From contig NC_135810.1 in NCBI RefSeq assembly GCF_964213995.1, forward strand, positions 41,044,001 to 41,108,000: DNA of 64,000 bases, in the 5' to 3' direction. This DNA comes from Mustelus asterias (lineage: Eukaryota). Shown piece by piece: positions 29,601-30,610 of the stretch (its first letter is position 1; each line of letters begins with the position of its first letter). The notes beneath the pieces are model-generated. The model had not been told where the DNA came from. It saw nothing but the letters and a program-made list of their open reading frames with translations, and made no database searches. Position numbers and translations under genes: made by a program.

Positions 29601-29690
29601 CCTTACCCCTGCATCCTGCCCCCCATCAATTAGTTCCTTGATCCTAGTCAACTCTTCTAGCTCCCCTCCCCCCAACCTATCTAGTTTAAA
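26670..29690 (-). pseudogene. CR1 ORF2 (APE endonuclease + RT) with one nonsense codon
   Basis: [35 protein letters not shown]; in-frame TAG at 28833-28835 separates the 280-aa and 720-aa ORFs. Confidence 0.95.
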
Positions 29691-30610
29691 TTCTCCCCAG
29701 TAGCCTTAGCCAACCTACCGGCCAGGATATTGGTCCCCGTGTGATTCAAGTTCCACCCGTTTTTTGTATACAGATCACCCCTGCCCCTAAAGAGGTCCCA
29801 ATGGTCCAGGAACCTGAATCCCTGCCCCCTGCACCAGTCCCTCAGCCACACATTCATCCTCCACCTCACTCCATTCCTGCCCTCACCTTCCCGTGGCACA
29901 GGCAGTAATCCTGAGATTACTACCTTTGCTTTCCTCTTTCTCAGCTGTCTCCCTAATTCCCTGTACTCCCTTTTCATGACCCCTTCTCCCTTCCTACCCA
30001 CATCAGCGGTACCAATATGTACCGCTACCTCAGGCTCCTCTCCCTCCCACCTCAGGATTTCCGGGACGCGACTAGCGACATCCTGGATCCCGGCCCCAGG
30101 GAGGCAGACCACCATGCGAGAATCCCGCCTACCTCCGCAGAAACGCCTGTCTGTCCCCTTCACCATCGAGTCCCCGATTAATACCGCCTTCCTCCTCTTT
30201 TCCTTAGCCCTCTGAGTTACCGGGCTGGACTCCACTGCGGAGACACGGCCACTGCTGCTTCCCCCAGGCGGGCTGTCCCCCCCAGCAGTACTCAAGCAAG
30301 AGTACTTGTTGTGCAGGGGCAAATCCACCGGGGTGCTCTCAACCACCCTAGCCTTACCCTTCCTGACCGTCACCCACTTGGCCTCCTCCCGTGGCCCTGG
30401 TGTGACCACCTGATGATAGCTCTTGTCTATCACCTCCTCATTCTCCCTCATCAGCCTAAGATCCTCGAGCTGCAGTTCCAGCTCCCTAACACGGTCCCTC
30501 AGGAACTGCAGCTCGACACACCCCTCACAGATGTGGATGTCCGGGAGGCCAGATGCCTCCAGGACCTCCCACATCCTACACTGGGAACAACACACTGGTT
30601 TCACACTCAT
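29681..30610 (-). CDS. CR1 ORF1 protein (zinc finger, coiled coil, SGNH esterase), 309 aa
   Basis: ATG at 30610; CSQC...HICEGC, heptad repeat LRDRVRELELQLEDL, LIGDSMVK, VHIGT block; open to TAG. Confidence 0.92.
   Translation of the reverse strand: MSVKPVCCSQCRMWEVLEASGLPDIHICEGCVELQFLRDRVRELELQLEDLRLMRENEEVIDKSYHQVVTPGPREEAKWVTVRKGKARVVESTPVDLPLHNKYSCLSTAGGDSPPGGSSSGRVSAVESSPVTQRAKEKRRKAVLIGDSMVKGTDRRFCGGRRDSRMVVCLPGAGIQDVASRVPEILRWEGEEPEVAVHIGTADVGRKGEGVMKREYRELGRQLRKRKAKVVISGLLPVPREGEGRNGVRWRMNVWLRDWCRGQGFRFLDHWDLFRGRGDLYTKNGWNLNHTGTNILAGRLAKATGENLN

Follow-up and report, generated by a model that had tools for sequence, protein, structure and literature searches.

CR1 LINEs are a dominant repeat of sharks, reptiles, and birds. 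How ORF2 of a LINE is translated has been termed an open question (PMC3894237), with partial answers for L1 and SART1. In a copy in the genome of the shark Mustelus asterias (3.68 Gb), ORF1 ends on the heptamer U_UUA_AAC, directly ahead of the stop codon, and ORF2 lies in the −1 frame. From the comparisons described below, we consider it probable (about 0.85) that the endonuclease and reverse transcriptase of CR1 LINEs with an esterase ORF1 are produced by programmed −1 frameshifting, which would yield an ORF1-ORF2 fusion.

The element and its ORF1/ORF2 junction

The window, i.e. the whole analyzed stretch of 64,000 nt, holds the following features (with the type of support in brackets):

26563..30759, minus strand: young, full-length CR1-type LINE of about 4.2 kb (sister-copy identity, 3′ tail, copy number)
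29681..30610, minus strand: ORF1 (309 aa, counted from its first Met), encoding an SGNH/GDSL esterase domain at about 30112-29765 (Pfam PF13472, E = 3e-10)
29684..29690, minus strand: putative slippery heptamer U_UUA_AAC on the final two codons of ORF1 (sequence and conservation)
29681..29683, minus strand: ORF1 stop codon (TAG) adjoining the heptamer (sequence)
29663..29677, minus strand: G-rich motif, a candidate frameshift stimulator, +7 to +21 after the heptamer (conservation)
29463..29683, minus strand: ORF2-frame linker that joins the slip site to the endonuclease, 76 codons long when counted from the heptamer (sequence)
29619..29635, minus strand: recombination breakpoint and junction remnant of a second lineage, AACTA plus a second G-run (lineage identities)
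26670..29462, minus strand: ORF2, endonuclease and reverse transcriptase, interrupted here by an in-frame stop (Pfam PF03372, PF14529, PF00078)
61235..61244, plus strand: heptamer and stop at the same junction of a second CR1 family (sequence, domains)

The sister copy L172 is 99.0% identical to the window CR1 over 4,197 nt, and the C-terminal 89 aa of ORF1 are identical in at least 150 copies. At its 3′ boundary the element carries a short tandem-repeat tail with an 8-nt repeat and no LTR. The domain content (SGNH esterase in ORF1; APE endonuclease and reverse transcriptase in ORF2) places it among the CR1-type LINEs with an esterase ORF1, and the nearest named homologues of its ORF1 come from rays, skates, and sharks. 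The labels CR1 and L2 are used here on the strength of motifs that we take to be diagnostic; the endonuclease tree comprised the fetched loci and relates these to one another, without named references. An in-frame stop at 28835-28833, missed by an earlier reading of the sequence alone, lies within ORF2, and the window copy is therefore unable to make full ORF2. This stop is private to the copy, being absent in the 27 sister copies readable at that site. Other CR1-like ORF2 pieces, from different families, were noted in the window at 41895-44824 (minus strand), 39631-40738, and 57353-58093; they include an 848-aa open frame lacking its 5′ end.

The sequence-only reading had described TTTAAAC at 29690-29684 as phased on the last two codons of ORF1, and the minus strand indeed reads AAT TTA AAC TAG, i.e. 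U_UUA_AAC-UAG. Its assignment of ORF2 to the −1 frame was likewise borne out; this frame is open from 29705 and reads Phe-Lys-Leu-Asp-Arg-Leu-Gly across the junction. The G-rich run that it had reported six bases past the heptamer occupies 29677-29663. The heptamer is thus an X_XXY_YYZ motif phased on zero-frame codons, and the downstream ORF is open in −1 from the heptamer, ahead of the zero-frame stop. Both U_UUA_AAC and G_GGA_AAC match the X_XXY_YYZ consensus (PMC3542737). Considering both strands of the window, TTTAAAC occurs 15 times versus 14 expected; since this is background frequency, the case rests on position and conservation. TTTAAACTA has a single other occurrence in the window (61235, plus strand), which falls on the junction of a different CR1 family. 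In this second element the ORF2 frame is open for 726 codons, and the first Met lies 15 codons past the endonuclease Asn.

Conservation within the shark genome

To locate junctions genome-wide, a degenerate anchor was designed for a conserved peptide of ORF1 that lies 30 nt ahead of the slip site. It identified 10,006 ORF1 anchors (seven for the reversed control), and 8,179 of these were followed by TTTAAAC-TAR at the exact distance. When any X base, any Leu/Phe-type codon, and any Asn codon were allowed before a stop, 8,537 anchors qualified, and the exact heptamer accounted for 95.8% of these. In the first 30 anchored loci, the heptamer directly preceded the stop in 27, with indels in the other three. 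A profile search that omitted the last four ORF1 residues gave 156 junction rows in loci of the same genome; the stop was at the expected place in 133, and the heptamer was present in 128 of these 133. Removal of duplicates left 115 contexts, which formed 17 groups with a mean identity of 62% upstream and 54% in the linker. The heptamer was kept in 110 of the 115 copies and in all 17 group representatives; as the groups are related, these counts are not independent events. Selection differed between the sets: 36 loci were chosen by likeness to the window copy, heptamer included, and 14 regions were picked from a list showing the heptamer, whereas the genome-wide anchor set and a hold-out set are among those selected without regard to it. 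For the hold-out set, 15 loci were fetched with an unrelated query. The stop was in register in ten of them, all ten with the heptamer; in the other five the heptamer was displaced by upstream damage (three), mutated (one), or deleted (one). We also observed that L197, L198, L203, L205, L206, L208, and L209 belong to one CR1 family with many copies on small unplaced contigs, which suggests an amplified repeat block.

Conservation of the bases exceeded that required by the protein. Among the 17 group representatives the last Leu is always TTA, the last Asn always AAC, and the codon before them always ends in T. Free synonymous change within the heptamer, which the sequence-only reading had named as evidence against frameshifting, was thus found in none of the groups. 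The codon preceding TTA AAC encodes eight different residues among copies. In the same ORF1 sequences, conserved upstream Leu, Asn, Gly, and Asp codons all vary; four codons are used at each of Leu −30, Leu −22, and Gly −18, and two at Asn −21. The stop varies as well (TAG in nine groups, TAA in six, TGA in two). Over the ORF1s, 13% of Leu residues are encoded by TTA and 40% of Asn residues by AAC. With the heptamer bases fixed while the codons of other residues and the stop vary, it is the seven bases, rather than the residues or the stop, that are under constraint.

The ORF2 frame opens just a few codons upstream of the heptamer. In 63 copies, preselected as being in −1 phase, it contained 123 stops in 1,680 codons upstream of the heptamer versus four in 3,790 codons from the heptamer to the endonuclease; the other two frames contained 291 and 345 stops. 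The nearest ORF2-frame stop is located 2-6 codons upstream of the heptamer in 13 of the 17 groups. Open linkers between slip site and endonuclease range from 39 to 99 codons and come in 14 different lengths, over which the −1 phase is kept; a phase varying among intact families would have spoken against frameshifting. Together with the constancy of the heptamer (17/17), this supports the proposal, first made from the letters of this one locus, that −1 slippage would produce an ORF1-ORF2 fusion. At the level of copies, the endonuclease is in −1 phase in 90 of the 112 in which it is readable. The 22 out-of-phase copies look like carriers of private indels; they fall mostly in groups with a −1 majority, and six have indels in or beside the G-run. 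For group L153, three fetched copies showed three different phases, and among the minus-strand matches listed, the G-run had the length of the −1 copy in six of nine. In the L153-L155 family the stop is TGA, and the G-run (about 9-11 bases) differs in length between copies, so that the ORF2 phase differs too.

A start codon upstream of the endonuclease is not a general property of these elements. The sequence-only reading had added the caveat that its copy has an in-frame Met there. This Met is present (29585-29583, 41 codons ahead of the endonuclease Asn at 29462-29460, which we take to be catalytic), but it is specific to a lineage, coming from the parental lineage L175/L185, and in other families the endonuclease is not preceded by an AUG. 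No Met was found before the endonuclease in open copies of L104 (0/4), L053 (0/2), and L192 (0/3), nor in L160, and 15 of the 20 open copies of group L113 lack one. L192 is a sister of the lineage that donated the Met and has none over its 99-codon linker. In L164 the frame stays open over 974 codons, and its first Met comes 15 codons past the endonuclease Asn. In both L164 and the second window CR1, the region around this Asn aligns with the strand at the N-terminus of the L1 endonuclease; a start at the first AUG would remove that strand. A missing AUG is in itself no proof, because translation of L1 ORF2 is considered not to depend on its AUG (PMC5009743).

The lineage identities indicate that the window family is an ORF1-swap recombinant, with ORF1 and the slip cassette from one lineage and the 5′ tip and ORF2 from another. 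From −1059 to +56 the family shows 88.6% identity to lineage L171; from +55 onward it shows 87-90% identity to lineage L175/L185. The breakpoint falls on the old junction of the second lineage, whose remnant lies 51 nt, or 17 codons, past the live heptamer; this offset preserves the frame, for which the chance expectation is one in three.

The G-rich motif is a genuine feature at the RNA level. G is found at +11, +13, and +14 in 17/17 groups; two of these sites (+11 and +14) fall on third codon positions in the ORF2 frame, and GGG makes up only 33% of Gly codons in ORF2. A GGGG-N(0-4)-GGG core beginning at +7 to +13 was present at 23 of 27 junctions versus 1 of 148 control windows. A G-quadruplex had been suggested as a stimulator. 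The G-run is conserved, but support for a stable quadruplex is weak, the three-tier pattern occurring at just two of the 27 junctions; the two-tier pattern was found at 23 of the 27 and in 30 of the 148 control windows. A conserved stem-loop was considered and rejected, as the folding test, run on models other than explicit pseudoknots, gave a z-score below −2 against shuffles for none of 26 junctions (window junction, z = +0.3). A search for a long-range pairing partner of the G-run revealed no shared position in 17 elements. In arterivirus frameshifting, a protein is bound at such spacing. The motif might, as a weaker suggestion, act here through a bound protein at that spacing or through a weak, two-tier quadruplex. 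Classical −1 sites require a structure 5-9 nt downstream (PMC3542737), and no stem-loop or pseudoknot was found there. Since this feature is missing, the CR1 junction is not classified as a classical −1 signal, though it would work like one.

Junctions beyond sharks

A total of 187 ORF1 homologues was collected, 119 of them with an intact C-terminal motif. Ninety-three of these 119 end in Asn and 26 in another residue. Leu-Asn is the most frequent end (77), and Gly-Asn occurs nine times; Leu-, Gly-, or Lys-Asn make up 87 of the 93 Asn ends, the remaining six being Ser-, Glu-, Ile-, or Phe-Asn. Leu-Asn ends were found in a snake, turtles, a swallow, a lizard, an eel, a sturgeon, and rays. The residue preceding Leu-Asn has a U-ending codon in 76 of the 77 ends (one exception), against a local background of 15% for residues without such a codon and 4-30 of 77 at control positions. 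Gln precedes Gly-Asn in all nine cases.

Metagenome contigs contributed 35 loci, 20 of which were inspected; the junction was covered in 16 of these. Eight loci, labeled bird-like from their ORF1 ends, carry U_UUA_AAC-UAG. At the same place and phase, L117 and L118 have G_GGA_AAC-UAG, and L121 has G_UUA_AAC-UAG, a relaxed form of the X_XXY_YYZ consensus. Among these 11 non-shark loci the −1 frame runs on to the endonuclease motif in eight (in one of them through a stop), and three contigs end before that motif. U_UUA_AAC and G_GGA_AAC are among the most shift-prone heptamers (PMC5009743). A change of the XXX block with YYZ kept, documented here by two DNA loci and nine proteins, is what tandem slippage would predict and what the rival explanations would not.

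An AUG two bases past the stop was present at 4 of the 11 non-shark junctions (ten have more than eight bases after the stop); at others of these loci this position is GTG, TGG, or TCG. In the 17 shark group representatives, no ATG was found at +6 to +8. A conserved AUG at or next to the ORF1 stop, as in SART1 or caliciviruses, is thus not a feature of these junctions. No relatives were found in viral contigs, and prokaryote genome contigs gave a single weak match of 19 residues. A scan for bacterial promoters, of no relevance to a vertebrate, gave no match. One shark-type CR1 ORF1 (P0023), located on a 4-kb contig, is labeled as a Pseudomonas aeruginosa SGNH hydrolase in NCBI; this label is probably due to contamination.

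Models of ORF2 translation and related systems

Under programmed −1 frameshifting, the majority of ribosomes would terminate at the ORF1 stop, and a minority would shift one base back, with tRNA-Leu and tRNA-Asn on UUA AAC, and then enter ORF2. The predicted product is a Gag-Pol-like fusion of ORF1, linker, endonuclease, and reverse transcriptase, with about 1,310 aa in the window family. More tentatively, a pause might stem from the G-rich motif, acting via a two-tier G-quadruplex or a bound protein, and perhaps also from slow decoding of the adjacent stop, rather than from a classical stem-loop or pseudoknot.

Termination followed by reinitiation would instead deliver free ORF2p, either independently of AUG, as has been proposed for L1, or from a near-cognate codon overlapping the stop, and the conserved bases would be the restart signal. 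This route, known from L1 and SART1 (PMC5009743, PMC3894237, PMC3708506), would agree with a stop that always directly follows the heptamer, with the AUG right behind the stop in 4 of the 11 non-shark loci, and with the overlapping −1 codon CUG that a TGA stop creates (2 of the 17 groups). In the other 15 groups, however, the overlapping codon is CUA, two changes away from AUG, and the AUG position is elsewhere occupied by TGG, AGG, GTG, TCG, or other codons. Reinitiation also leaves the block switch of XXX from UUU to GGG unexplained, and the conserved G-run lies downstream, whereas signals of the calicivirus type lie upstream (PMC3542737). We regard it as unlikely, although it is the strongest of the rivals. 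The separate production of an ORF1 or ORF2 message, with the junction serving as a weak poly(A) signal, a splice acceptor, or a TATA-like promoter element, has a still smaller chance. UUUAAA with a G-rich stretch behind it looks like a variant poly(A) signal plus its downstream element; codon phase, the G_GGA_AAC variant, and the open AUG-less linker would not be accounted for, the AG required of a splice acceptor is missing in the TAA and TGA groups (8/17), and a separate ORF2 message would in several families have its start Met inside the endonuclease. Contigs from four runs bridge the junction and show no joint there; being blind to expression, ends, and strand, they do not enter the argument.

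Slippage of RNA polymerase or reverse transcriptase, adding one base within the T/A run so that some RNAs have both ORFs in frame, has genomic precedents in copies with such an insertion (L191, L185/L186), but insertion (9) and deletion (26) copies are few compared with 8,179 intact ones genome-wide, and the T and A runs are just three bases long. ORF2p prefers its own RNA (cis preference), and if slipped RNAs were its sole source, this preference would make new copies carry the insertion. We consider this explanation very improbable. Lowest in rank, with next to no probability, is the idea that the bases are fixed by overlapping protein constraint, on Leu-Asn of ORF1 and Phe-Lys-Leu of ORF2, and no recoding takes place. 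Leu-Asn is indeed conserved at the C-terminus of ORF1. Phe-Lys-Leu, however, could be constrained only if translated, which requires entry at or before the heptamer, and in 13 of 17 groups the ORF2 frame is closed by a stop 2-6 codons ahead of it; furthermore, Gly-Asn replaces Leu-Asn jointly with the X base.

A few copies with joined frames were noted. In L185, L186, and L191 one extra base within the heptamer joins the two frames; L185 and L186 share flanks, which identifies them as a duplication and not as a mobile fused family. In L097 (G000:C12, near 51338288, minus strand) an indel upstream of the heptamer joins ORF1 and a complete ORF2 into an open frame of 1,290 aa. This single copy may reflect a mutation or an assembly error.

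The frameshifting proposed here for CR1 resembles viral and retroviral −1 sites, which include U_UUA_AAC of coronaviruses, G_GGA_AAC, and G_UU(A) in equine arteritis virus (PMC5009743, PMC3542737). The likeness extends to the identity and phase of the heptamer, to the order of a structural gene and, behind it in the −1 frame, a polymerase gene, and to a conserved element beginning 7-13 nt downstream. Unlike the viral and LTR hosts of such sites, CR1 is a LINE; past its heptamer lies a short G-rich motif, and neither a conserved stem-loop nor a pseudoknot was found at the junctions. L1 uses an unconventional AUG-independent initiation of ORF2 and SART1 a UAAUG stop-start (PMC5009743, PMC3894237, PMC3708506). 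With these, CR1 shares a bicistronic LINE RNA and an ORF2 translated from the same message; unlike both, which yield free ORF2p, it has no conserved AUG or spacer, its frames overlap, and a fusion is predicted. Frameshifts have also been proposed for other retroelements of non-LTR type: in Penelope-like elements a frameshift accompanied by a pseudoknot can set ORF1 apart (PMC8557442), and Drosophila HeT-A has a frameshift in gag (PMC5009743). They differ from CR1 in that Penelope-like elements are another class and use a pseudoknot, and the HeT-A shift lies inside gag; neither has an endonuclease-reverse transcriptase ORF2 of the CR1 type.

Among CR1/L2 elements with an esterase-bearing ORF1, zebrafish ZfL2-1 resembles the window CR1 in that an ORF1 with an SGNH esterase precedes its APE-RT ORF2; in the available parts of its description, ORF1p is treated as a separate protein, and neither frameshift nor readthrough is mentioned (PMC3905857). 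The literature covered contained no report of frameshifting for CR1; the key CR1 papers of 1997-2003, which may remark on the overlap, fall outside this coverage. A further parallel may exist in Dictyostelium TRE5-A, an APE-type LINE with −1 frameshifting into an AUG-less ORF2. If this account holds, the same logic would operate in a LINE as in CR1, but in an L1-related clade in amoebae. A passage search of PMC5633606 found no mention of frameshifting, and the frameshift passage of PMC5006619 deals with DIRS-1, not TRE5-A.

If CR1 does use −1 frameshifting, its reverse transcriptase would be a Gag-Pol-like fusion bearing a membrane-binding esterase, ORF2 annotations begun at the first Met would be too short, and a CR1 retrotransposition assay based on ORF2-only constructs might be using the wrong protein. 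The CR1 site would then also extend the range of eukaryotic −1 frameshift signals by one that works without a downstream stem or pseudoknot.

A different arrangement was found in five metagenome loci (L120, L122, L123, L136, and L149), which we presume to be L2-like from their endonuclease motif. In this shark genome, a search for L2-like junctions yielded none, the 15 fetched loci all being CR1 copies. In all five metagenome loci ORF2 continues in the ORF1 frame immediately after TGA-C. Up to the endonuclease, 70-108 codons are open, and four of the five loci have no Met in that stretch; two have TGA CTAG. UGA-C is a leaky stop context (PMC3542737), and stop-codon readthrough at UGA-C is a candidate mechanism for L2-like elements with an esterase ORF1. 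As the five loci represent about three families, readthrough is a lead only. A broader generalization is possible but somewhat doubtful, namely that all LINEs with an esterase ORF1 make ORF2 solely as a recoded fusion, CR1 elements of vertebrates and of more distant animals by −1 frameshifting with a short G-rich, structure-free stimulator and L2-like elements by UGA-C readthrough, a division that retroviruses show as well. L136 forms a long branch in the endonuclease tree, in support of the L2-like label. In L136 and L149 ORF1 ends on C_CCA_AAC, but the −1 frame closes immediately.
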